Source of the DNA: Rickettsia typhi
GTDB taxonomy: Bacteria > Pseudomonadota > Alphaproteobacteria > Rickettsiales > Deianiraeaceae
Direction of reading: 5' to 3'
Assembly (NCBI GenBank): GCA_945889175.1
Contig: CAMDBF010000003.1
Location: 223-64,222, forward strand
DNA: 64,000 bases
In this document: one piece after another, positions 10,095-60,010 of the stretch
Layout: every line of letters starts with the position of its first letter
Position numbering within the stretch: the stretch's first letter is position 1
Position numbers and translations under genes: made by a program
Notes under the pieces: model-generated
The model's input: the letters and a program-made list of their open reading frames with translations, nothing else
What the model was told of the DNA's origin: nothing
Database searches by the model: none

Positions 10095-13000
10095 TTATTT
10101 TAAATAAGATTGCAATTCCAACCAAATACACTCACTTAAATGAGGTAAAAGAGGGGCTACAATTTTACAAAAATTAAAAAGAACAGTGTAAAGTGTATTG
10201 TAAGCGTTTTGTTTGTCGTTATCTTTTTGCGACTTCCAAAACCTATCCTTGTTTCGTCTTATATACCAATTATTTAAGACATCAACAAAAGCGGTAATTT
10301 TTTTACAAGCATCAGGTGTATTGTAGGCGTCCATTGCAAGCCTTACATCGATAGTTAAAAGGCTTAATTTAGACAAAATATAAATATCCATTGCATTGCT
10401 TGATTCAAAACTTTCTTGAGCTTTTATCTCGTCTGCTTTTGAATATATTTTGAAAAAAGTATAAGCATTATTTATTGGCTTTAAAACGAGTCTTGCAACA
10501 TCCTTAATCTCCTGTCCGTTTGCACTAACCAACAAGTCACCACCTTGCATTACAGGACTTGATACAACAAACCACCGCATCGCATCGCTTCCAATTTCGT
10601 CAAAAACTTGCATGGGGTCAGGATAATTCCTTAATCTTTTGGAAAGCTTTTGCCCCTTTGAATCAAGTATAACACCGTGACAAATACAGTTTTTAAATGG
10701 TGCTGTATCAAATAATGCGGTACTTAAAACCATCAAAGTGTAAAACCATCCTCTAGTTTGAGCTGCATACTCAACAATAAAATCTGCAGGATAATTTTTT
10801 GGCTTTAAAAGCGATGGGTCAAGGCTATCTTTGTTAAACGGATAATGCACAGAGGCAAAAGGCATAGATCCAGACTCAAACCAGCAATCAAGAACATCAC
10901 TAACCCTTGAATACTCCTCGTTATCTTTAACAATCTTAATATCGTCAATAAAAGGTCGGTGTAGGTCTTGTATTTTTTGTCCACTCGCTTTTTCAATCTC
11001 TTCAACCGAGCTGAACACTAAAATTTTACCAGTTTTTGATTTCCAAACTGGTATAGGACAGCCCCAATAACGATTGCGACTAATTGACCAATCCCTAGAG
11101 CCCTCAAGCCATTTACCAAACTGCCCATCCCTGATATGCGAAGGTATCCAGTTAATTCCCCTTGGATTATAATGTAAGTAAGATGGTCTGTTTAACTCGT
11201 AGCAATATTCCTCATAATATTTTGTTTTGCTGCCTTTTGGATTTTGCGATATTTTTTTTGCAACAAGGTTAAACCTATGCTTTATTGCAATTTTTTGAGA
11301 AACAACATTATCCGAAATAGTATTAAGGCCAATTTTTTGTATTGGATAGTTACTAAAAGCAAGATTAATAATTTCATCAAGAGCTTCAGTGCAGTAGCCA
11401 TTGCCCTGCATGTTTTTTGAAACCATGTAAGAAACCTCAATTAAACCTTTTTCAAAAGATTCCAAAGCTGGATCGTAAAAACACAGACCAACAAGACCAA
11501 TAAAGCTATCTTTGTTTTGGGGCTTGCCTTTTTGAAACAACATGTAGCGTGGCAAATTGTGCTTTTCGAGTTGAAGATTATAATATATTATAGAATCTTC
11601 AACTTGAGACCTCGTCATTACTTGGTTGTCGGCAAAGTAATAGTATTTTCTTACCTCTTCGTTACCCAAGATGCACTCAAAAAGCAAATCAACATCATCC
11701 ATGCTAACAAGCCTTCCTTCAAGCCTTTGCGTATTAAATCTCAAACCTCTGTTGAGTTCAATCATTCTATTTTTGATTAAAGGATTTGTAACCTCAACAT
11801 ACCAAGAGGAAACGGCTTTATAAATAAGAGGGGTATCCGTTCTCCAGCAATGGGGATAGTTATGGATAATTTGCTCCGTTTTTAACCATGAACCATTTAA
11901 TTTAAGATATCTTATAATATCGTCATTAACACCATCGTAATTTTTTGTACCTTTATCACTAAGGCACTCCTCCAGTACACATCTAGATTTCAGGCGTAAA
12001 GTAAAGTCTGCTATTTTTAAATCTATCAACCTTGAATCATGAAAACACCCAGCATCGTCAATTGGACAAATAACTGATATGCCATTTTTTTCGCATACAA
12101 TCTGATCCTCTTCACCAAAAGCTGGAGCAAGGTGAACTATACCGGTTCCATCTTCGGTAGTAACAAAGTCAGCGGTTAAAACTTTAAAAGCATTTTTAGC
12201 CTCTTCGTCGTTTTTAAAATAAGGGAACAGTGGTTCGTAAGAGCTATTTTCAATATCGGAGCCCTTAAAGGTAAGACTTAAAGGATTAATGCTCTTAAAA
12301 TTTGATGACTCAAGGCTCATTTTTTTATAACTTACTGCCCCTTCTTGAATGATTTTGTCGCTAAAAACAAATCCAAGTTTAGTATAAAATTTTTCAATAG
12401 CAATCCCCCTGGTATCAGAGTTCTCGCCGTAATAAATTAATGGCGATGCCCAAGCTTTAGTAACCCCTTTGCTAAAGTAGAGTTCTAAAATTCCAGATAA
12501 AATTTTAAGCCCAAGTCCAAGACCTCTAAAGCCTTCAATTATTGCAAGGCGAGAAATAGTTATTTCGCTAGCTTCATGTAAAACCCTAATAGTTGCAATC
12601 GCCTGACCGTTGTTGTATATTAGATAATGCTCGTAATCCACATCCGTAACATCCCAAGCAAAGGTTTTATTGAGATTTTTCTCTTTAACAAATACTTCAT
12701 CGCGAATATGTTTTGAGGTATCAAACATTTGATCATTTTCACATTTTTGTATAAAGCTTAAATCAAAACCATCAAGTTCTTTTTTATACTTTGAAATAAG
12801 ATTTTTTGCCAAAATACATTTTTCAGTCGCAGAGCTAAGGCATACATAATCAATATCCTTTCCAACGGCTATAGCAAGATTAGATGGGAGGGTCCAAGGT
12901 GTCGTGGTCCAACCCAGTGCCCTTGCACCAATGTACTTACCGCTTGTTAATATAAATTTTACAGTTGCAGTTTTTGATTGTTTTTCCCTGTAGGCGTTAT

Positions 13001-13598
13001 CAAGTTTTGTTTCAAAGTTTGAAAGAGGCGTTTGACACTTCCATGAGTAAGGCATAACACGGTATTTTTCGTACAAAAAGCCTTTTTTGTGAAGTTCACC
13101 AAAAGCCCAAATCACGGATTCCATGTAAGACTTGTCCATAGTTTTGTAGTCGTCTTTAAAGTCAACCCACCTACCAGATTTTGTAATGTAATCTTGCCAC
13201 TGCTCGGTATATTTCATTACCCCAGTTTTGCAGGCTTGGTTAAAGTTATGTATGCCGTATTTTTCAATAGCAACTTTTCCGCTAATACTTAGTGTTTTTT
13301 CTGTTTCCATTTCAGCTGGTAGCCCGTGGCAGTCCCATCCAAATCGACGCTTAGTTTGATTGCCAAGCATTGTTTGATATCTAGCAAAAATATCTTTAAC
13401 AAAGCTTGTTAAAAGATGACCATAATGTGGCAGTCCATTTGCAAAGGGTGGACCATCATAAAATATAAAATTACCTGTTAAATTAGAATTGTTGACTGAT
13501 TTTTTAAAAATATCGTTCCTTTCCCAATGTCCACGAATTGATTTTTCAATATTGGCAAAATTAAAACTTGAATCATTCATATCTTTTTTAAAAATCAA
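10095..13598 (-). CDS. ileS: isoleucine--tRNA ligase, type 2, carrying two inserted GNAT acetyltransferase domains
   Basis: Motifs in order: HIGH 'PHYGH', 'FGWDCHGLP', editing-domain 'TTTPWTLPSN' and 'GTGIVHLAPAFGEED', 'YPHCWRTDTPL', 'DWSISRNRYWGCPIP', 'DCWFESGSMP' and KMSKS 'KLSKR'. Two GNAT-like segments lie at aa ~275-435 and ~617-814. Confidence 0.9.
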   Translation of the reverse strand: MIFKKDMNDSSFNFANIEKSIRGHWERNDIFKKSVNNSNLTGNFIFYDGPPFANGLPHYGHLLTSFVKDIFARYQTMLGNQTKRRFGWDCHGLPAEMETEKTLSISGKVAIEKYGIHNFNQACKTGVMKYTEQWQDYITKSGRWVDFKDDYKTMDKSYMESVIWAFGELHKKGFLYEKYRVMPYSWKCQTPLSNFETKLDNAYREKQSKTATVKFILTSGKYIGARALGWTTTPWTLPSNLAIAVGKDIDYVCLSSATEKCILAKNLISKYKKELDGFDLSFIQKCENDQMFDTSKHIRDEVFVKEKNLNKTFAWDVTDVDYEHYLIYNNGQAIATIRVLHEASEITISRLAIIEGFRGLGLGLKILSGILELYFSKGVTKAWASPLIYYGENSDTRGIAIEKFYTKLGFVFSDKIIQEGAVSYKKMSLESSNFKSINPLSLTFKGSDIENSSYEPLFPYFKNDEEAKNAFKVLTADFVTTEDGTGIVHLAPAFGEEDQIVCEKNGISVICPIDDAGCFHDSRLIDLKIADFTLRLKSRCVLEECLSDKGTKNYDGVNDDIIRYLKLNGSWLKTEQIIHNYPHCWRTDTPLIYKAVSSWYVEVTNPLIKNRMIELNRGLRFNTQRLEGRLVSMDDVDLLFECILGNEEVRKYYYFADNQVMTRSQVEDSIIYYNLQLEKHNLPRYMLFQKGKPQNKDSFIGLVGLCFYDPALESFEKGLIEVSYMVSKNMQGNGYCTEALDEIINLAFSNYPIQKIGLNTISDNVVSQKIAIKHRFNLVAKKISQNPKGSKTKYYEEYCYELNRPSYLHYNPRGINWIPSHIRDGQFGKWLEGSRDWSISRNRYWGCPIPVWKSKTGKILVFSSVEEIEKASGQKIQDLHRPFIDDIKIVKDNEEYSRVSDVLDCWFESGSMPFASVHYPFNKDSLDPSLLKPKNYPADFIVEYAAQTRGWFYTLMVLSTALFDTAPFKNCICHGVILDSKGQKLSKRLRNYPDPMQVFDEIGSDAMRWFVVSSPVMQGGDLLVSANGQEIKDVARLVLKPINNAYTFFKIYSKADEIKAQESFESSNAMDIYILSKLSLLTIDVRLAMDAYNTPDACKKITAFVDVLNNWYIRRNKDRFWKSQKDNDKQNAYNTLYTVLFNFCKIVAPLLPHLSECIWLELQSYLK

Positions 13599-21252: not shown

Positions 21253-21696
21253 TTAATTTTTTATAAAAATATGATTACCATTAATCGTAACCCAATGACC
21301 AGATTCTCCGTTTGAATTGTGTTCAAATTCTTTAGGCGAGTCTGCTTTTAATCTAAGTCCGCCATTTCGTAATGTATCTGCAACATTTTTACCATTGCTA
21401 TCATTTTTTGCATTTGGCTGACTACCAATTTTACGACCAACGGCATTATTATATTGGTCTTTTGCTTTTTCATGCGGATGGTTATTTAGTCTTATTTCAT
21501 TTATGTTTCCAAGCTGTCTAGCGCCCCAATTGCCAGCTATCTGAAATGTGTTATTATTTATATCCGTTGTTAATTTTGCTGATACATATGCATGAGTATA
21601 AGCATTAAATTCTTCGTATGTTGGTTGCCTGCCAAAATTTTGAACAAATTGATCTTTGGCCTCTTTTTCGTAAGGTTTTGGATTAAAGGGGTACAT
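21253..21696 (-). CDS. hypothetical protein with mobile-element-like motifs
   Basis: The ORF-track start at 21720 is TTG; the first ATG is at 21696 (MYPFNPKPY...). Contains 'NAYTHAYVSAKL ... DQYNNAVGRKIG' and the C-terminal 'GHWVTINGNHIFI'. It is the last gene of the minus-strand string downstream of dnaK. Confidence 0.5.
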   Translation of the reverse strand: MYPFNPKPYEKEAKDQFVQNFGRQPTYEEFNAYTHAYVSAKLTTDINNNTFQIAGNWGARQLGNINEIRLNNHPHEKAKDQYNNAVGRKIGSQPNAKNDSNGKNVADTLRNGGLRLKADSPKEFEHNSNGESGHWVTINGNHIFIKN

Positions 21697-21778
21697 AAAA
21701 TAAAAATACAATAATAACAATAAATAATTAATTTGCCATTATATTAAGTTATTATCTTTTATCACGGAAGCAGAAATT

Positions 21779-22012
21779 CTATTTTTTATCGTAACATTTA
21801 ATATTGCATTCTGCTTCTATCATTTTATTGCTATTAATGCAGCTATGCTCGCACTTTGTTTGCTCATTTTCCTTAAGTCCATCTAAATATATTTGTGTAA
21901 ATACACAAAATACAAACAATAGCATTGGTATTGCAAAAATATAAGTCAAAATAAGAGATGTTTTGCACCAAATGTGCAATAGTTTTTTAAAAATTTTTAT
22001 AACCTTTTTCAT
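21779..22012 (-). CDS. small membrane-anchored twin-CX3C protein, copy 1
   Basis: MKKVIKIFKKLLHIWCKTSLILTYIFAIPMLLF is identical to copy 2 (basic N-terminus plus TM). The C-terminus has C-EHS-C-x10-C-NIK-C. Confidence 0.6.
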   Translation of the reverse strand: MKKVIKIFKKLLHIWCKTSLILTYIFAIPMLLFVFCVFTQIYLDGLKENEQTKCEHSCINSNKMIEAECNIKCYDKK

Positions 22013-22173
22013 TTTTATGTCAATAAATGTGTTGTGCGTATGGTGTTTATATATGGCGCAATAATACTATTCAACAACATATCACTTTAAATCTATTAAG
22101 AGTTTATTAATAGTCAAGGTTATGGAATGGGCCTGTTATGAAAATCATTGTCTTTTATCGCGGAAGCAGAATT

Positions 22174-22401
22174 TTACATCATTGTATCATAACATGACTT
22201 AAAACATACAGATTCTTTTTCTTCGTCACGATTAAAACATTGTTTTCTACACTCTTGGTTTACATGTTCGCTATAGCCTATCTCGATTAACATCAATAGC
22301 ATAAACAATAGCATTGGTATTGCAAAAATATAAGTCAAAATAAGAGATGTTTTGCACCAAATGTGTAATAGTTTTTTAAAAATTTTTATAACCTTTTTCA
22401 T
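22174..22401 (-). CDS. small membrane-anchored twin-CX3C protein, copy 2
   Basis: Same 33-aa N-terminus as copy 1. The C-terminus has C-RKQ-C-x10-C-FKS-C. Confidence 0.6.
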   Translation of the reverse strand: MKKVIKIFKKLLHIWCKTSLILTYIFAIPMLLFMLLMLIEIGYSEHVNQECRKQCFNRDEEKESVCFKSCYDTMM

Positions 22402-22524
22402 TTTTATGTCAATAAATGTGTTGTGCGTACGATATTTATATATGGTGCAATAATACTATTCAACAACATGTCACTTTAAATCTATTAATAGCTTATTTGA
22501 TGTCAATTTTTAAGGAACGAAATA

Positions 22525-23289
22525 TTAAACTTTTAAATACAAAAATAAAACATAAACACCAAGAGATATAAAAAATGGCGGAACCAATGGAACAACAAAC
22601 ATTGTAAAAACATCCGAAAGATTGTTTATATAAAAAAAGCTTTTAAACCATTTTTTAAAACACTTTGAAAGTTCTTTTGTCCAAATCCAAAGATTTTTTA
22701 TCCAAATTGGCATCAAAGGTTTTTCAATAAGCCAAGTAGGACAGTCGTGAAAAATAAAATGTAAGGCCTTGAAGATATAGCTTACAGGATTATTTTTCAA
22801 TGAGTAATGAATGTCGTAAAAATCTGGAAAGGTTATTTTTAAAAAATTATCTTTTTGCTTTCTTAAAATTTTTTGCTCCTGTTTAGTTTTTTGTTTTATA
22901 TTAAGCCAATCTTGAATATTGTAAAAATTAAAACTCTCATTGACAGCAAGATAGGATGTTTCAATTAGTAAAGATTCATAAATTGTATTTATTAAAACTA
23001 AAGCTATAGATTTATTTAACATTCCAGCTTTGTAATATCTAACAAGCTTATTACTAGCAGGACTCGCTAGTCTTGTTGCAATAATTTTACACTCCTTCGC
23101 GGTTTTACATGCTGCAAACTTAAACATAGCTTGATTTATCTCGTCCTCTATCTCTACGGCTCTGTCGGTATTTTGGTGATATATTTTAAGTCTATCTGAA
23201 AGGCTTAAAAATCCAAAGCCAAAAAAGGATAAAATTGATGTTATCACTCCTAAATTATCAAGGGTAAAAACATTCATTTTTTCAAACAT
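22525..23289 (-). CDS. hypothetical membrane protein (one N-terminal and one C-terminal TM helix)
   Basis: 254-aa ORF. Its start overlaps the stop of the upstream 68-aa ORF (TAATG), suggesting translational coupling. No family was recognised. Confidence 0.5.
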   Translation of the reverse strand: MFEKMNVFTLDNLGVITSILSFFGFGFLSLSDRLKIYHQNTDRAVEIEDEINQAMFKFAACKTAKECKIIATRLASPASNKLVRYYKAGMLNKSIALVLINTIYESLLIETSYLAVNESFNFYNIQDWLNIKQKTKQEQKILRKQKDNFLKITFPDFYDIHYSLKNNPVSYIFKALHFIFHDCPTWLIEKPLMPIWIKNLWIWTKELSKCFKKWFKSFFYINNLSDVFTMFVVPLVPPFFISLGVYVLFLYLKV

Positions 23290-23495
23290 TAATGAGACTT
23301 ATGTTCTTGAGACTTTGAATTACCTATCGAAGGATCGGAATCTTGAATTATTTTCATTACCCTTGCCATTGTTCTTACGATGTCTGGAAAAGGGGGGGTA
23401 AAATCATTTATTGTAGAATCTCTTTGATTATTACCTTGCTTTAAAGATGCTTGCTTAACACCATTCTTCAAATCTTGATAGATATTTTCTGACAT
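23289..23495 (-). CDS. hypothetical small hydrophilic protein
   Basis: 68-aa ORF, coupled to the downstream 254-aa ORF. No family was recognised. Confidence 0.35.
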   Translation of the reverse strand: MSENIYQDLKNGVKQASLKQGNNQRDSTINDFTPPFPDIVRTMARVMKIIQDSDPSIGNSKSQEHKSH

Positions 23496-23518
23496 AATAT
23501 ATCATTAACAATAAATTT

Positions 23519-23803
23519 CTAACTATCTTGCTTTGTCTCAATTTTATCATTTACGATAGTATTGTCAAACGTTTTATCTTGATCTGAAGAATTTGATGTT
23601 AATTTAAGTGATGTTAATTTAAGAACATTAGAATAAGCTCGATCACTTCCTTGTTGACTATTAAAACTAGACAATGTTATCCCAATGCCTTTACACTCCA
23701 CTTTTGCTGTTACAACGGGATTTATTATTCTAGTATCATTTGCCTCCTGCACTGCAGAAGGCTCTTTTTGCTGCTCTTTTTGTTCCATTTTTGCAACAAA
23801 CAA
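23519..23803 (-). CDS. hypothetical small protein immediately following dnaK
   Basis: 94-aa ORF whose first ATG abuts the dnaK stop codon. An alternative start is MEQKEQ. No hairpin lies between dnaK and this ORF. No family was recognised. Confidence 0.3.
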   Translation of the reverse strand: MFVAKMEQKEQQKEPSAVQEANDTRIINPVVTAKVECKGIGITLSSFNSQQGSDRAYSNVLKLTSLKLTSNSSDQDKTFDNTIVNDKIETKQDS

Positions 23804-49262: not shown

Positions 49263-51116
49263 TTGATCTACCAGATCTTATCTATTTTTATTATGGCAGG
49301 AGGAGCACCAGAGCAAGACAAGGTTTTAAGATACTTTAAAAACTTGGTTGTATTAAGTATTTTTTATGGAATAATCCTAGGATTTTTCTATTTTGCAAAC
49401 CTTCTATCAATTATTGCAGTTGTCGAATCCGTCGATAGAGTTATCAGCATCCTGCATTACGACCCTAAATTATATGCTAAACTAGCTATCGAAAGAACTC
49501 TTTACTACTGGTCTTTTTGGTTAAAATACAAAAGTACAATAAATTACTCTTATCATCACTTTTTTGTTATAAAGCTTTTTGCATTAACAATATCGCCTAC
49601 AATTTTATTAATGCTGTACATAAAAACTAAATGGCAAAGCATTAAAGAGTTTGTACCTTATAAGCCAGGGGAGGCTTTACACGGGGATGCCCATTGGGCA
49701 AGTTATTCTGAGATTAAAAAAATCGGTCTCTTTGCTAAGGATGGAATGCTTCTTGGCGAATACAAGCCTTCTAAATATTTTATTATAAAAGACTACCAGC
49801 ATGTACTACTCTTTGCTCCAACTGGATCTGGTAAGGGTGTTGGCTTTGTAATACCAAATCTATTATTTTGGAAAGAGAGCGTACTTGTTCATGATATTAA
49901 ACTTGAAAACTACGAACTTACAAGCGGATATAGATTTAATGTTTTAAAGCAAAAGTGTTACACTTGGGCTCCTGCTGATCCAGAAGGATACTCCCATTGT
50001 TACAATCCACTTGACTGGATAGCAACTCAATCTGGTAAAATGGTAGATGATGTTCAAAAAATTGTAAAAATTGTTATGCCAAAGCAAGAATTTTGGGAAA
50101 ACGAAGCTCGAAGCATGACAGTTGGGGTTATTTTGTTTTTAATAGCCGACGAAACAAAGCCCACAACCTTTGGAGAGGTTGTTAGAACACTAAGAAGTGA
50201 CGATGTAACTCAAACCCTAGCCGTTGCACTTGATACTCTTGGTGACAAGATTCACCCAGTTGGATATATGAATCTTTCTGCTTTTTTACAAAAAGCTGAA
50301 AAGGAAAGATCTGGTGTAATATCTACTGCAAACTCTGGACTTGAGCTTTGGTCAAACCCACTTATCGATAAAACAACATCACGAAGCGACTTTGACATAA
50401 GGCAGTTTAAAAAAGATTTGACAACCGTTTATGTAGGACTAACTCCCGATAACATTGAAAGACTAAGACCTCTAATGTCAATGTTTTACCAGCAGGCGAC
50501 AGCTTTTTTAGCATCTAAAATTCCACAAAAAGATGAACCATATGGCGTTATGTTTATGATGGATGAGTTTCCTACCGTTGGAAAGCTTGAACAATTTTTA
50601 TCTGGTATCGCTTATTTTCGTGGTTACCATGTTAAACTTTTTTTAATCGTACAAGATACTCAGCAATTAAAGGGTACATACGAAGACTCTGGTATGAACT
50701 CATTTTTATCAAACTCTACCTACCGTATAACATTTGCAGCCAATAACATTGAGACGGCAAAGTTAATATCCGAGCTTGTTGGTAACAAAACAGCCGTCTC
50801 AGAATCAATGAACAAGCCAAAGTTTTTAGATCTGAACCCTGGTAGTAGATCAGTCCACATGTCTCATACCCAAAGAGCTCTGCTTTTACCGCAGGAGGTT
50901 ATAGGATTGCCAAAAACAGATCAAATTATTCTTATCGAGGCATCACCACCAATAAGATGTAAAAAAATTAGATACTTTAAAGATAAATTTTTTACAAGGA
51001 AACTTCAAAAACCAATACCAATTCCAAAACAAAAACCTTATACTCCAAAAAGACAGACTCCAAAGCCACAAAATTCAGAATCAAATGCAACATCTTCCAA
51101 TGCGGCTAACAATTAA
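49263..51116 (+). CDS. virD4: type IV secretion coupling protein VirD4/TraG
   Basis: N-terminal TMs, Walker A 'FAPTGSGKGVGFVIPN', 'MFMMDEFPTVG' (Walker B) and 'FLIVQD'. The start is TTG 49263 or ATG 49293. Confidence 0.85.
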   Translation: MIYQILSIFIMAGGAPEQDKVLRYFKNLVVLSIFYGIILGFFYFANLLSIIAVVESVDRVISILHYDPKLYAKLAIERTLYYWSFWLKYKSTINYSYHHFFVIKLFALTISPTILLMLYIKTKWQSIKEFVPYKPGEALHGDAHWASYSEIKKIGLFAKDGMLLGEYKPSKYFIIKDYQHVLLFAPTGSGKGVGFVIPNLLFWKESVLVHDIKLENYELTSGYRFNVLKQKCYTWAPADPEGYSHCYNPLDWIATQSGKMVDDVQKIVKIVMPKQEFWENEARSMTVGVILFLIADETKPTTFGEVVRTLRSDDVTQTLAVALDTLGDKIHPVGYMNLSAFLQKAEKERSGVISTANSGLELWSNPLIDKTTSRSDFDIRQFKKDLTTVYVGLTPDNIERLRPLMSMFYQQATAFLASKIPQKDEPYGVMFMMDEFPTVGKLEQFLSGIAYFRGYHVKLFLIVQDTQQLKGTYEDSGMNSFLSNSTYRITFAANNIETAKLISELVGNKTAVSESMNKPKFLDLNPGSRSVHMSHTQRALLLPQEVIGLPKTDQIILIEASPPIRCKKIRYFKDKFFTRKLQKPIPIPKQKPYTPKRQTPKPQNSESNATSSNAANN

Positions 51117-57517: not shown

Positions 57518-60010
57518 ATGTTTAATGGACTTAGTCTTAACAGGCATAAATCAAAAAAAAGAGGGGTAGCTAAATACGAATACTCAACTTCAAACTTCAT
57601 ACCATACTCCCGACATTACAACGGTAAAACTATAGTTACAAAGGACGGTGAACTTATAAGTGTTATAAAAGTATCTGGCTTTTCTTTTGAAACTGCCGAT
57701 GACGATGACCTAAATTTAAAAAAAGACGCAAGAAACAACTTATTAAAAGGCTTTGCAACGGGTCAGTTTGGAGTGTACTTTCATACTATACGAAAAAAAC
57801 ATCAGGCCTATCCAGATGGTAAATTTAGCGACTTAATTTGCAAAGGTATAGACGACGAATGGAGACTGAGGCATGAAAAAGATTATACATTTATCAACGA
57901 GCATTACATTACAATACTACGAAAGAGTAATAAAATTGAAGAGGGCTTTGCTAAGCTATCTAAAAAAATTGCAAGTCGCAAACGCAAAAATAACGATGCA
58001 CTTGACGATGACGAGATAGATGAGGAGGTTCAAAAAGAATTAGCTAAAGTGGAAGAAGAAATATTAAAAGAAAACCACTCTCAACTTGAAGAGGTAAGGG
58101 ACAGAATCTACAATTCACTTTCGGGTTATCAGCCTGAAATACTTGAGGCAAAAAAAACAAGTGATGGCTTTTACTGCCCAATGCTGGAATTTTTATCTAG
58201 CATATCAAATTGCTGTCAGGTGCAAAAGGTTTTGGTTCCCAATATTTCACTAGATAAATACTTGCAAAGAGTAAGGCTTTATTTTAGTGGCAAAACTGGT
58301 GAATTTATAGCGCCAACTGGCGAGAAAAAATACTTTGCAATGGTTAGTTTAAAGGACTATAGAAATACCACGCATGCTGGACTTATGGATTCTTTTTTGC
58401 AGCTTCCATTTGAATTTGTAATTTCACAATCTTACTTCTTTATAGATAAGATGATTGCAGTCAACAAGCTACAATTACAACAAAGAAGACTTATACAATC
58501 AGAGGATGTTGCCATCTCTCAAATTGCCGAAATTAACGAGGCCTTGGACTCTTCAATGTCAGGTAGATTTGCTTTTGGTAATCACCACATGACAGTTATG
58601 TGCATAGGTGACAGCATAAAGGAGCTTGATTCAAATGTATCGCAAACGGTTGTGGAATTTTCGAGCGTTGGTATTAATGCAACGAGGGAAAGATTTAACT
58701 TAGAGCCAGCATTTTGGTCTCAGCTACCAGGTAACCAGTCTTTTATAGGTCGTAAGTCAATTATAAACAGTATGAATGTAGCATCCCTTGCTTCGCTACA
58801 CAATCATCCATCGGGCAAGCGAAAAGGCAACCATTGGGGCGATGCGGTTACGGTTTTTAATACAACATCTGGTACCCCTTATTTTTTTAGCTTTCATGTA
58901 AGAGATGTTGGGCATACAATGATAGTTGGTCCAACTGGTGCCGGTAAAACGGTTTTAATGAATTTTTTATGTGCTCAGGCACAAAAATTTAATCCAAAAA
59001 TATTTTTCTTCGATAAGGACAGAGGTGCCGAGATATTTGTAAGGGCAATAGGTGGTAAATATATTTATCCATCAGCATCCGAATATTCTGGCTTTAACCC
59101 ATTGCAACTTGCCGATACTTATGATAATAGAATTTTTCTTGAAGGATGGTTTGTTGCAATGCTAACATCGGCAGGCGAAAGTCTTGCCGCAGAGGATTAT
59201 GCAATTATCAAACAGGCAGTAGATGGCAACTACAAACTACCAAGAGATCAAAGATGTATATCCAATGTGTCAGCTTTTTTTGGAATGGAAAAAGTTGGTA
59301 GCCTTGCAAACAGACTTGCAAGATGGCACGGACAGGGCTCAAAAGCAAAACTTTTTGACAATCCTGAGGATAGCATTGATTTTTCCCATGGAAGAGTCTT
59401 TGGCTTTGAGATGGGTGATTTACTTAAGGATAAAATATCGCTACCAGCAACCCTTGAATATCTTTTTCACAGAATATCAGGCTCGCTTGATGGTAGTCCA
59501 ACAATGATAGTTTTAGACGAGGCTTGGGCATTGATAGATAACCCTGTTTTTGGACCTAAAATTAAGGATTGGCTCAAGGTATTGCGTAAGTTAAATGCTA
59601 TGGTTGTTTTTGCAACCCAATCAGTTGAAGATGCTACAAAAAGTAACATAAGCGACACATTGGTTCAGCAAACAGCAACTCAAATATTTTTACCAAATCT
59701 TAAGGCAACAGAAGAATACAAAAGAACCTTTATGCTAACCGATAGAGAGTTTAATCTTGTTAAAACAACCGACCCCGGAACAAGGTTTTTTTTAGTAAAA
59801 CAAGATAGCAACGCAGTAATTACAAGAATTAGCCTTGCCGGCATGGACGATATTATATCAATACTCTCAGGAAGAGTTGAGACCGTTGACCTCTTGGATA
59901 AAATTAGAGCAAAAGTGGGCGACGACCCATCCGCTTGGCTACCAATTTTTCTTGATACACTTCATCAGGAGAAGCTAAAGAAAAAATCAGAAAAATCAAC
60001 CGATGTGTAG
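57518..60010 (+). CDS. virB4: type IV secretion ATPase VirB4
   Basis: N-terminal 'FIPYSRHYNGKTIVTKDGELISVIKVSGF', Walker A 'GPTGAGKTV', 'MIVLDEAW' and 'VFATQS'. No virB3 lies upstream and no virB6 downstream. Confidence 0.9.
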   Translation: MFNGLSLNRHKSKKRGVAKYEYSTSNFIPYSRHYNGKTIVTKDGELISVIKVSGFSFETADDDDLNLKKDARNNLLKGFATGQFGVYFHTIRKKHQAYPDGKFSDLICKGIDDEWRLRHEKDYTFINEHYITILRKSNKIEEGFAKLSKKIASRKRKNNDALDDDEIDEEVQKELAKVEEEILKENHSQLEEVRDRIYNSLSGYQPEILEAKKTSDGFYCPMLEFLSSISNCCQVQKVLVPNISLDKYLQRVRLYFSGKTGEFIAPTGEKKYFAMVSLKDYRNTTHAGLMDSFLQLPFEFVISQSYFFIDKMIAVNKLQLQQRRLIQSEDVAISQIAEINEALDSSMSGRFAFGNHHMTVMCIGDSIKELDSNVSQTVVEFSSVGINATRERFNLEPAFWSQLPGNQSFIGRKSIINSMNVASLASLHNHPSGKRKGNHWGDAVTVFNTTSGTPYFFSFHVRDVGHTMIVGPTGAGKTVLMNFLCAQAQKFNPKIFFFDKDRGAEIFVRAIGGKYIYPSASEYSGFNPLQLADTYDNRIFLEGWFVAMLTSAGESLAAEDYAIIKQAVDGNYKLPRDQRCISNVSAFFGMEKVGSLANRLARWHGQGSKAKLFDNPEDSIDFSHGRVFGFEMGDLLKDKISLPATLEYLFHRISGSLDGSPTMIVLDEAWALIDNPVFGPKIKDWLKVLRKLNAMVVFATQSVEDATKSNISDTLVQQTATQIFLPNLKATEEYKRTFMLTDREFNLVKTTDPGTRFFLVKQDSNAVITRISLAGMDDIISILSGRVETVDLLDKIRAKVGDDPSAWLPIFLDTLHQEKLKKKSEKSTDV

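Follow-up and report, generated by a model that had tools for sequence, protein, structure and literature searches.

Tandem Twin-CX3C Membrane Mini-Proteins as Candidate Immunity Proteins Beside a DUF6973/BteO-like Gene

Introduction

What is the function of two adjacent genes that share their upstream flank and their first 33 codons, differ in the remainder of their DNA sequence and end in the same pattern of four cysteines? The question is raised by a 64-kb stretch of contig CAMDBF010000003.1, deposited under the name Rickettsia typhi and referred to here as the window, in which genes A and B, encoding membrane proteins of 77 and 75 residues, precede a gene for a 147-residue protein of the Pfam family DUF6973. 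The answer that we tentatively favor, at somewhat less than an even chance, is that A and B are immunity proteins of a kind not described before, stapled by disulfides and exposed to the periplasm, that would act against the downstream DUF6973 protein, a putative toxin related to BteO of Bacteroides fragilis. All coordinates are those of the window and refer to the minus strand unless stated otherwise (Table 1); L-numbers designate other contigs or loci and P-numbers other proteins with which the window was compared.

A Tandem Cassette with Conserved Flanks

Both units are built in the same order, 5′ flank, leader, core and 3′ box, measure about 365–372 nucleotides (nt) each and are separated by a gap of 24 nt. 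A direct repeat of 204 nt (21914–22117 and 22303–22506, 94% identity, spacing 389 nt) takes in some 105 nt of the 5′ flank together with codons 1–33, and residues 1–33 of A and B are identical. Directly after each stop codon follows a second repeat of 33 nt with 85% identity, the 21-nt core of which occurs exactly twice in the 64 kb with 0 copies expected in shuffled sequences; a 35-nt probe for the leader likewise has exactly two copies in the window and none expected in shuffles. A tandem cassette with near-identical 5′ flanks and leaders and a shared 21-nt 3′ box, as described by a first-pass annotation of the window, is confirmed by these alignments, which lengthen the box to 33 nt. The B-then-A tandem was also assembled in L001, L002 and L024/L025, independent metagenomes of three other samples, and an assembly artefact is excluded because the same tandem recurs in the contigs of these samples.

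The flanks contain several candidate signals. A TTGAAT-N17-TATAAA box, to which the annotation had drawn attention, does occur in each unit; however, sites resembling promoters show no excess over shuffled sequences in a region this rich in AT (19 versus 16.2 ± 4.3) and the box is not kept in more distant relatives, and it was rejected as a meaningful signal since its frequency is no higher than chance. Also rejected were two RNA structures: pairing of the 3′ box with the coding sequence, which gives a perfect 9-bp stem in unit A that is not kept in B or L012 (z-scores −0.3, −0.3, −2.1 and −0.2 for a conserved hairpin), and an antisense terminator-like hairpin in the leader (21963–21979, plus strand), which neither B nor other lineages retain.

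Architecture of the Small Proteins

The cysteines of A are arranged as C54-x3-C58-x10-C69-x3-C73, and the same spacing is found in B and in all orthologues, whereas a six-frame scan detected no other real gene of the window with the pattern. This common architecture of the two C-termini had been noted before and holds. Residues 1–17 carry a net charge of +6, residues 20–38 form a transmembrane (TM) segment with a mean Kyte-Doolittle hydropathy of 2.68, and the remaining approximately 35 residues are slightly acidic. Both the hydrophobic segment and the N-region are too long for a cleaved signal peptide, and the positive-inside rule predicts a periplasmic C-terminus, in agreement with the topology proposed in the annotation (basic N-terminus, one TM segment, periplasmic hairpin). 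An AlphaFold2 model of A built from a five-sequence alignment (mean predicted local distance difference test score, pLDDT, of 80, and of about 67 in the C-terminal part) consists of a helix from residue 2 to 60 that includes the first CX3C, a loop from 61 to 65 and a helix from 66 to 74 that includes the second. The model thus places one CX3C in each helix of a helix-loop-helix C-terminus, as had been anticipated, and is consistent with a disulfide-stapled helical hairpin, although the disulfides themselves are conjectural. Among known families there was no Pfam match at E ≤ 0.1 except a sub-threshold one to DUF6097 and no match in NCBIfam, PHROGs or PADLOC, and a Foldseek search of the model against the PDB returned nothing.

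Are the two C-termini related to each other? The annotation had regarded the cores as unalignable at the DNA level. At the protein level they align readily, with 28% identity between the ectodomains and a common motif E-x5-C-x3-C-x-N-x5-E-x2-C-x3-C-Y-D, and A and B are therefore old paralogues.

Two C-Terminal Types Under Constraint

Among 5.8 billion proteins the family is represented by only four clusters at 90% identity and by exactly two C-terminal types. Orthologues of A are P0002, P0003 and P0014, those of B are P0005, P0015 and the copy in L012, all four cysteines being kept in the latter group, and in all distinct sequences of the family (8/8) the four cysteines stand at the same spacing, so that further copies do preserve it. 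Between orthologues the C-terminal halves evolve slowly at the protein level. Comparing the window with L004, the C-terminal half of A has 0.168 nonsynonymous substitutions per site (dN) and 1.75 synonymous ones (dS); comparison with L001 and L003 gives one nonsynonymous to five to six synonymous changes; and for the C-terminal half of B, window versus L012, dN is 0.064 and dS 0.268. Overall dN/dS among orthologues is about 0.03–0.24. Since these values are well below 1, each type is under purifying rather than diversifying selection and the small ORFs (open reading frames) are real coding genes under constraint. The terms hypervariable and diversifying selection, applied to the C-termini in the annotation, are therefore to be abandoned, as only two types were found, each with a dN/dS well below 1.

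These data also bear on the proposal that A and B are ORFs that arose by chance, or pseudogenes in decay, within a duplicated piece of intergenic DNA and that their cysteine pattern is coincidental. The genes are indeed very small, have no strong ribosome-binding sites, lie in an AT-rich region and belong to a family of just those four clusters. However, reading frames and all four cysteines are conserved across lineages at a dS of up to 1.75 versus a dN of 0.17, the genes were called independently by the gene callers of several projects, and their linkage to the DUF6973 gene holds in three genomic contexts. We consider this explanation very improbable.

The leaders behave differently from the C-termini. 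Within a genome they are nearly the same, the leaders of A and B differing by 1 nt both in the window and in L001 and the two leader copies in L012 by 2 nt, whereas between genomes 16 nt differ between A of the window and the A-type gene of L004 and 9 nt between B of the window and the B-type gene of L012. Because the leaders group by genome and not by type, their near-identity is read as concerted evolution, and the pattern looks like the signature of gene conversion or of repeated recombination across the conserved flanks. At L012 9556–9693 and L011 32–169, 2–5 nt upstream of the B-type gene, stands a leader-only remnant ORF of 45 residues, the conserved 33-residue leader followed by 12 unrelated residues, which is the trace of a previous duplication or recombination event in the leader.

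Could the small proteins themselves be the active agents, as bacteriocin-like or type I toxin-like peptides, with the DUF6973 protein being unrelated or protective? A conserved leader joined to a divergent C-terminus with a cysteine framework does resemble secreted peptide toxin families, and the lower dS of the leader (0.36 as compared to 1.75 in the C-terminal half, window A versus L004) could reflect a constraint on the nucleotide sequence of the kind expected for an antisense RNA. The low leader dS is, however, accounted for by homogenization within the genome, and no conserved RNA structure was found, the antisense leader hairpin being absent in B and in other lineages. Moreover, a hydrophobic segment of about 19–23 residues after a basic N-region of 17 residues, with no cleavage-type motif, has the look of a signal anchor rather than of a leader that is cut off, the adjacent genes include none for processing or export, and it is the DUF6973 family that is documented as toxin. 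Active peptides are thus an improbable solution, if less so than chance ORFs.

The Downstream Gene Belongs to the BteO Family by Sequence

What is encoded by the gene that follows A and B? The 155-codon ORF for which the annotation had suggested that the small proteins might confer immunity is the frame of the 147-residue protein extended to a TTG at 21720, and the suggestion gains support from what this neighbor contains, a BteO-like toxin domain. The protein matches Pfam DUF6973 (PF22322) over residues 18–109 with 35.8 bits (curated cut-off 27, E = 7e-9), and its orthologues are also flagged PF22322. It consists of the DUF6973 domain and a 15-residue C-terminal motif only, no signal peptide was found in it, and it had no match in NCBIfam, PHROGs or PADLOC. 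An AlphaFold2 model from a five-sequence alignment is unusable (pLDDT 46). An exhaustive profile search of 1.84 billion representatives yielded distant relatives only, 57 of them at E < 1e-3; A32, H35, E67, D80, N83 and N84 are invariant in the alignment of relatives, and the family motif reads [DN]-A-[FY]-x-H ... [NH]-E ... D-x-[WY]-N-N-x-x-G-R. The profile of the family alignment found one solved structure in the PDB, 9UU0, which is BteO (E = 1.9e-10), and the matched BteO fragment itself hits PF22322 with 49 bits (E = 5.5e-13). Direct comparison of the window clade with the BteO fragment by hhalign is weak (E = 8.7e-4, probability 23%), the link being mainly transitive via the family profile.

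BteO is a type VI secretion system (T6SS) effector of B. fragilis GA3 whose toxicity is restricted to the periplasm; it makes cells elongate, bleb and lyse and binds OmpA-C-like domains (PMC12541434; PDB 9UU0, 9UU1). It contains an N-terminal TM helix in the same polypeptide, and its toxicity is lost upon mutation of R143, H144, H167, E168, D187 or D191 (PMC12541434). The cognate immunity protein BtiO, encoded beside BteO, is a periplasmic OmpA-C-like mimic with a signal peptide (PMC12541434). The positions critical in BteO coincide with the conserved motif positions of the family, and their equivalents in the window protein are T34-H35, N66-E67, E76 (for D187) and D80, which means that most, not all, are kept. 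To judge from these similarities, the 147-residue protein is a member of the BteO toxin family. Moreover, DUF6973 is found elsewhere after the end of RHS proteins, before RTX repeats, together with Hint, behind Hydro_N_hd, an N-terminal domain of the secretion type, and fused to PG_binding_1 plus OmpA, domain partners that point to the behavior of a secreted toxin module. The last of these fusions, the metagenomic protein P0107 of 466 residues with DUF6973 behind PG_binding_1 and an OmpA-family domain, is of note because both the reported target of BteO and its immunity mimic are OmpA-C-like.

A relationship of DUF6973 to serum amyloid A was considered and rejected; a profile match to 4q5g (serum amyloid A-3) over about 80 residues (E = 0.016) lines up the H, E and N-x-x-G-R motif positions, but hhalign against human SAA1 gave a probability of 2%. 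A full-text literature search found no paper containing "DUF6973", and "BteO" in a microbiological sense was confined to the BteO paper and one related T6SS paper.

The 147-residue protein ends in the motif GHWVTINGNHIFIKN (21253–21300, the last 15 codons) with the core GHWVTINGNHIFI. In the form G-[HRK]-W-V-T-I-[ND]-G-x-H-[VI]-F-I this motif terminates many stand-alone DUF6973 proteins, and it is repeated two to five times inside giant phage-type polyvalent proteins, P0033, P0048 and P0053 being carriers; the polyvalent carriers comprise a portal fusion with ART-PolyVal, a PARP-like protein and a protein of 2475 residues. No Pfam or PHROG family matched the motif, which may be a packaging, delivery or processing tag.

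A Mobile Two-Gene Module

The association of the small gene with the DUF6973 gene, which follows 58–83 nt on, is found in three unrelated chromosomal contexts: 1) between dnaK and ffh in the window, L001–L003 and L024; 2) between an outer membrane protein gene and purD in L004–L010 and L015; 3) between nuoB/bolA and leuA in L012, on a 1.285-Mb contig. The two genes thus form a conserved and mobile module. The notion that they are one frameshifted gene was rejected, as the frame offsets vary between lineages. A scan of a genome collection found one locus, and a metagenome scan with the leader alignment gave, among the matches listed, one locus that was already known and otherwise unspecific AT-rich sequence.

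In the window's species the module lies in a strain-variable island between dnaK and ffh. When window and L001 are compared by blastn, 22893–23721 is unmatched while the flanks are 96–98% identical. The replaced part of the window comprises the 89–94-residue gene, the 68-residue gene and most of the gene for a 254-residue membrane protein, of which just the 3′ end is retained in L001 and L002, and in its place L001 (3476–4382) holds an unrelated 100-residue zinc-ribbon/TM protein and a 209-residue protein. Because the first ~20 residues of the first gene (MEQKEQQK...) are shared, the recombination breakpoint is placed inside this gene. The 254-residue protein had no family match in Pfam, NCBIfam or PHROGs.

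DUF6973 genes in other places are also adjoined by small envelope proteins, which belong to differing families (window, L018, L019, L022, L023). A DUF6973 gene of Duganella has a lipoprotein gene directly upstream, within an HlyD/ABC export locus, and at three other low-GC loci a multi-pass membrane protein of 125–136 residues is encoded upstream on the opposite strand.

Such an arrangement could be imagined to serve the cell that carries it: the small protein might be a membrane tether, regulator or export helper of an endogenous DUF6973 envelope protein that, for instance, modulates the cell's own OmpA-peptidoglycan connection, with no inter-bacterial conflict involved. The two genes are closely paired and point the same way, the small gene leading; BteO has its own N-terminal TM helix, so that separate TM and DUF6973 proteins could represent this layout split in two; and competition toxins are perhaps less expected in a host that looks small-genomed (1.285-Mb contig) and bears a Rickettsia label. 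Nevertheless, a DUF6973 protein that has no signal peptide and a hairpin predicted to be periplasmic would not meet in the producing cell, and the difference in frames between lineages gives no indication of a conserved fusion or frameshift. A strain-variable location, shifts between genomic contexts, a toxin groove segment that is allelic within the species and tandem paralogues with distinct ectodomains, typical of immunity arrays, are likewise difficult to reconcile with an endogenous role. We regard such a role as unlikely, though as the strongest of the alternatives considered here.

The module could also be a lysis cassette of phage or gene transfer agent (GTA) origin, in which the small proteins, similar to holin and antiholin, free the signal-less DUF6973 protein into the periplasm, where it would destabilize the link between OmpA and the cell wall and lyse the cell. 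This would agree with the blebbing and lysis upon BteO expression, with the recurrence of the C-terminal motif in phage portal-fused and ART-carrying polyvalent proteins, with one distant DUF6973 gene that ends a prophage-like block beside a terminase and with the existence of two similar small membrane proteins, which could be holin and antiholin. On the other hand, phage genes flank the module in none of the three contexts, searches of IMG/VR, phage genomes and plasmids for the module gave no match and neither did PHROGs, cysteine-stapled ectodomains are rare in holins, and two lineages make do with a single small gene. The types of the small gene, furthermore, track the toxin alleles, which would be needless for a holin. 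A lysis cassette therefore seems rather improbable, a little more so than an endogenous envelope role.

Toxin Alleles and Their Pairing with A and B

Within the species the DUF6973 gene is a mosaic. Between window and L001, dN is 0.30 in codons 26–76, the groove segment flanked by the His and Glu motifs, and 0.016–0.024 at the ends. Two alleles can be distinguished, a "long" one having an 8-residue insertion between H35 and N66-E67 and a "short" one. Genomes with a single small gene combine A′ with the short allele (L004 lineage) or B′ with the long allele (L011 and L012). In strains of the window's species both small genes occur together with a single toxin allele, B and A being accompanied by the long allele in the window and L024 and by the short allele in L001 and L002. 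A fifth combination, A and the long allele without B, is found in L003, a contig of 1.2 kb, and may be due to assembly collapse because the contig junction falls exactly in the 204-nt repeat. The simplest reading of this small sample is that A would protect against the short and B against the long allele and that the window's species keeps both.

How Immunity Could Work

If A and B are immunity proteins, the following picture emerges. The small protein would be anchored in the inner membrane, its lysine-rich N-terminus pointing to the cytoplasm, as charge and hydropathy suggest, and would expose to the periplasm a predicted helix-loop-helix hairpin of about 35 residues, presumably stapled by disulfides C1–C4 and C2–C3. 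The signal-less DUF6973 protein would leave the producing cell by a dedicated route and would, by homology to BteO and its action on OmpA-C-like domains, attack the envelope of a neighbor cell from the periplasm, where the tethered hairpin could bind and block the toxin groove formed by H35, N66-E67, E76 and D80. Two toxin alleles differing in the groove segment would circulate, A and B being the immunity to each of them. Gene conversion or recombination would hold the promoter and leader half near-identical within a genome while the 3′ halves that would determine specificity remain distinct, and conserved flanks and leader would in turn promote gene conversion and cassette exchange. The compartments fit: with a toxin devoid of a signal peptide and a hairpin predicted to face the periplasm, the layout is that of immunity to contact-delivered effectors that act in the periplasm.

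Several observations weigh against this proposal. Toxicity, binding and protection are predictions only, and the confidence of AlphaFold2 in the hairpin is only about 67. Two positions critical in BteO are altered in the window protein (R143 to T34, H167 to N66). The 147-residue protein carries no T6SS, RHS, RTX or other trafficking domain, and its export is therefore not accounted for; the secretion genes seen in the window are those of a scattered type IV secretion system (T4SS) only (VirB4, VirD4). The small gene precedes the toxin gene, whereas classical polymorphic toxin loci have the immunity gene downstream, and the known immunity protein, BtiO, is a signal peptide-bearing OmpA-C-like mimic unrelated to the hairpins. 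The pairing of A with the short and B with the long allele derives from just two independent single-copy lineages, and L003 departs from it.

How closely does the module resemble known systems? With BteO-BtiO it shares the DUF6973 domain, which constitutes the toxic head of BteO, the His/Glu/Asp positions (H35, E67 and D80, with E76 for D187) and, if the predicted topology is correct, an adjacent gene for a periplasmic partner of a toxin that in the case of BteO acts in the periplasm. It differs in that A and B are single-pass twin-CX3C proteins of 75–77 residues, that the putative toxin is a stand-alone protein of 147 residues without the N-terminal TM helix of BteO, and that the host is a freshwater bacterium of small genome with T4SS genes and not a Bacteroides. 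No T6SS genes stand beside the module in the three contexts, the window having only VirD4 and VirB4; the whole genome was not surveyed. By analogy, the module resembles a periplasm-acting effector-immunity pair and not a strict BteO-BtiO system.

Polymorphic toxin-immunity systems, in which orphan or extra immunity genes occur (Zhang et al., 2012, PMC3482391), offer a second comparison. Similarities are a toxin domain common to secreted proteins containing RHS, RTX and Hint, an adjoining small gene that is unrelated in sequence between loci, a central toxin segment swapped by recombination between strains and related small genes in tandem with conserved, recombination-prone flanks. Unlike in these systems, the window toxin has no N-terminal trafficking domain, the candidate immunity gene is upstream, and diversity is low with only two immunity types and two toxin alleles seen.

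If the small proteins do confer immunity, a stapled hairpin of 35 residues on a membrane tether would suffice against BteO/DUF6973 envelope toxins, a solution far simpler than the OmpA mimic BtiO and a compact natural inhibitor scaffold for the toxin groove. BteO-like toxins would extend from the T6SS of gut Bacteroides to free-standing genes in freshwater bacteria of small genome apparently without a T6SS, which raises the question of delivery. The locus would provide a small and clean example, at the level of populations, of strains that each combine a single toxin allele with both immunity types and of concerted evolution in the regulatory and leader half next to a distinct specificity half, and with BteO (PDB 9UU0) Pfam DUF6973 gains a functional anchor.

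Resemblance to Small Tim Chaperones

The twin-CX3C arrangement had been likened in the annotation to the small Tim proteins of the mitochondrial intermembrane space. This likeness extends to the CX3C-Xn-CX3C pattern, the predicted helix-loop-helix with one CX3C per helix and an oxidizing compartment, here the periplasm. It does not extend to sequence or fold matches, none being found in Pfam including zf-Tim10_DDP (PF02953) at E ≤ 0.1 or in the PDB by Foldseek. Furthermore, the spacer of 10 residues is short for small Tims, A and B are membrane-anchored by residues 20–38 whereas small Tims are soluble hexameric proteins of about 10 kDa, and A and B are linked to a toxin gene and not to protein import. 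Plant alpha-hairpinin peptides also show a twin-CX3C cysteine pattern. The likeness is most readily explained by convergent evolution toward a minimal hairpin stapled by disulfides. Evolutionary kinship with the small Tims, for which cysteine pattern, predicted hairpin and oxidizing compartment could be cited, would give bacteria a relative of a fold of the intermembrane space that has hitherto been regarded as invented by eukaryotes, but strikes us as extremely far-fetched; it is more probable that A and B represent a novel and minimal class of immunity protein directed against BteO-like toxins. A full-text literature search for twin CX3C motifs in connection with bacteria and the periplasm gave only mitochondrial papers among the best 10 of 18 matches.

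The Host and the Wider Window

To which organism does the window belong? It is AT-rich with about 33% GC and contains genes for peptidoglycan synthesis. Its sole relative in a set of species-representative genomes is L015 (CAMCVL010000002.1), a metagenome-assembled genome from a lake that was also deposited as "Rickettsia typhi", almost certainly a wrong name for an uncultured relative from fresh water; L015 carries hisB, purD, pyrF and enolase genes in addition to the small-gene/DUF6973 module. The host is probably an uncultured lake bacterium of the order Rickettsiales, "Rickettsia typhi" being read as a placeholder label. The genes for VirD4 (T4SS-DNA_transf, E = 2e-138) and VirB4 (CagE_TrbE_VirB) are separated by unrelated genes, among them those for an EptA-like phosphoethanolamine transferase and Maf. 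Such scattering of T4SS genes is typical of the Rickettsiales. The T4SS is a possible export route for the DUF6973 protein.

Table 1. Positions of the module, its flanking repeats and other genes discussed in the text.
Feature	Position	Strand	Description
Class I aminoacyl-tRNA synthetase ORF	10095–13598	minus	1167 residues, unusual architecture
DUF6973/BteO-like gene	21253–21696	minus	147 residues from ATG at 21696; "long" allele; candidate toxin
3′ box, unit A	21746–21778	minus	core 21755–21775; overlaps promoter-like GTGATA-16-TATAAT upstream of the DUF6973 gene
Gene A	21779–22012	minus	77-residue single-pass membrane protein, predicted periplasmic twin-CX3C hairpin; candidate immunity protein type A
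5′ flank, unit A	22013–22117	minus	upstream part of 204-nt repeat
3′ box, unit B	22142–22174	minus	core 22151–22171; begins 2–3 nt past the stop codon
Gene B	22174–22401	minus	75-residue single-pass membrane protein (N-in), predicted periplasmic C-x3-C-x10-C-x3-C hairpin; candidate immunity protein type B
5′ flank, unit B	22402–22506	minus	upstream part of 204-nt repeat; promoter-like TTGACA-16-TAGATT and TTGAAT-17-TATAAA
254-residue membrane protein	22525–23289	minus	upstream of unit B; strain-variable island
Small gene, 68 residues	23289–23495	minus	between dnaK and the 254-residue gene; no family match
Small gene, 89–94 residues	23519–23788/23803	minus	between dnaK and the 254-residue gene; no family match
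681-residue protein	25942–27987	plus	no family match
VirD4	49263–51116	plus	family match
VirB4	57518–60010	plus	family match

Two further genes of the window deserve mention. The 681-residue protein, divergent from dnaK, is rich in Ser, Thr and Asn in its C-terminal third and is conserved in a sister strain (679 residues). In the aminoacyl-tRNA synthetase ORF, GNAT domains (Acetyltransf_1 at about residues 309–411 and Acetyltransf_3 at residues 627–776) are apparently inserted between the catalytic and the anticodon-binding parts.

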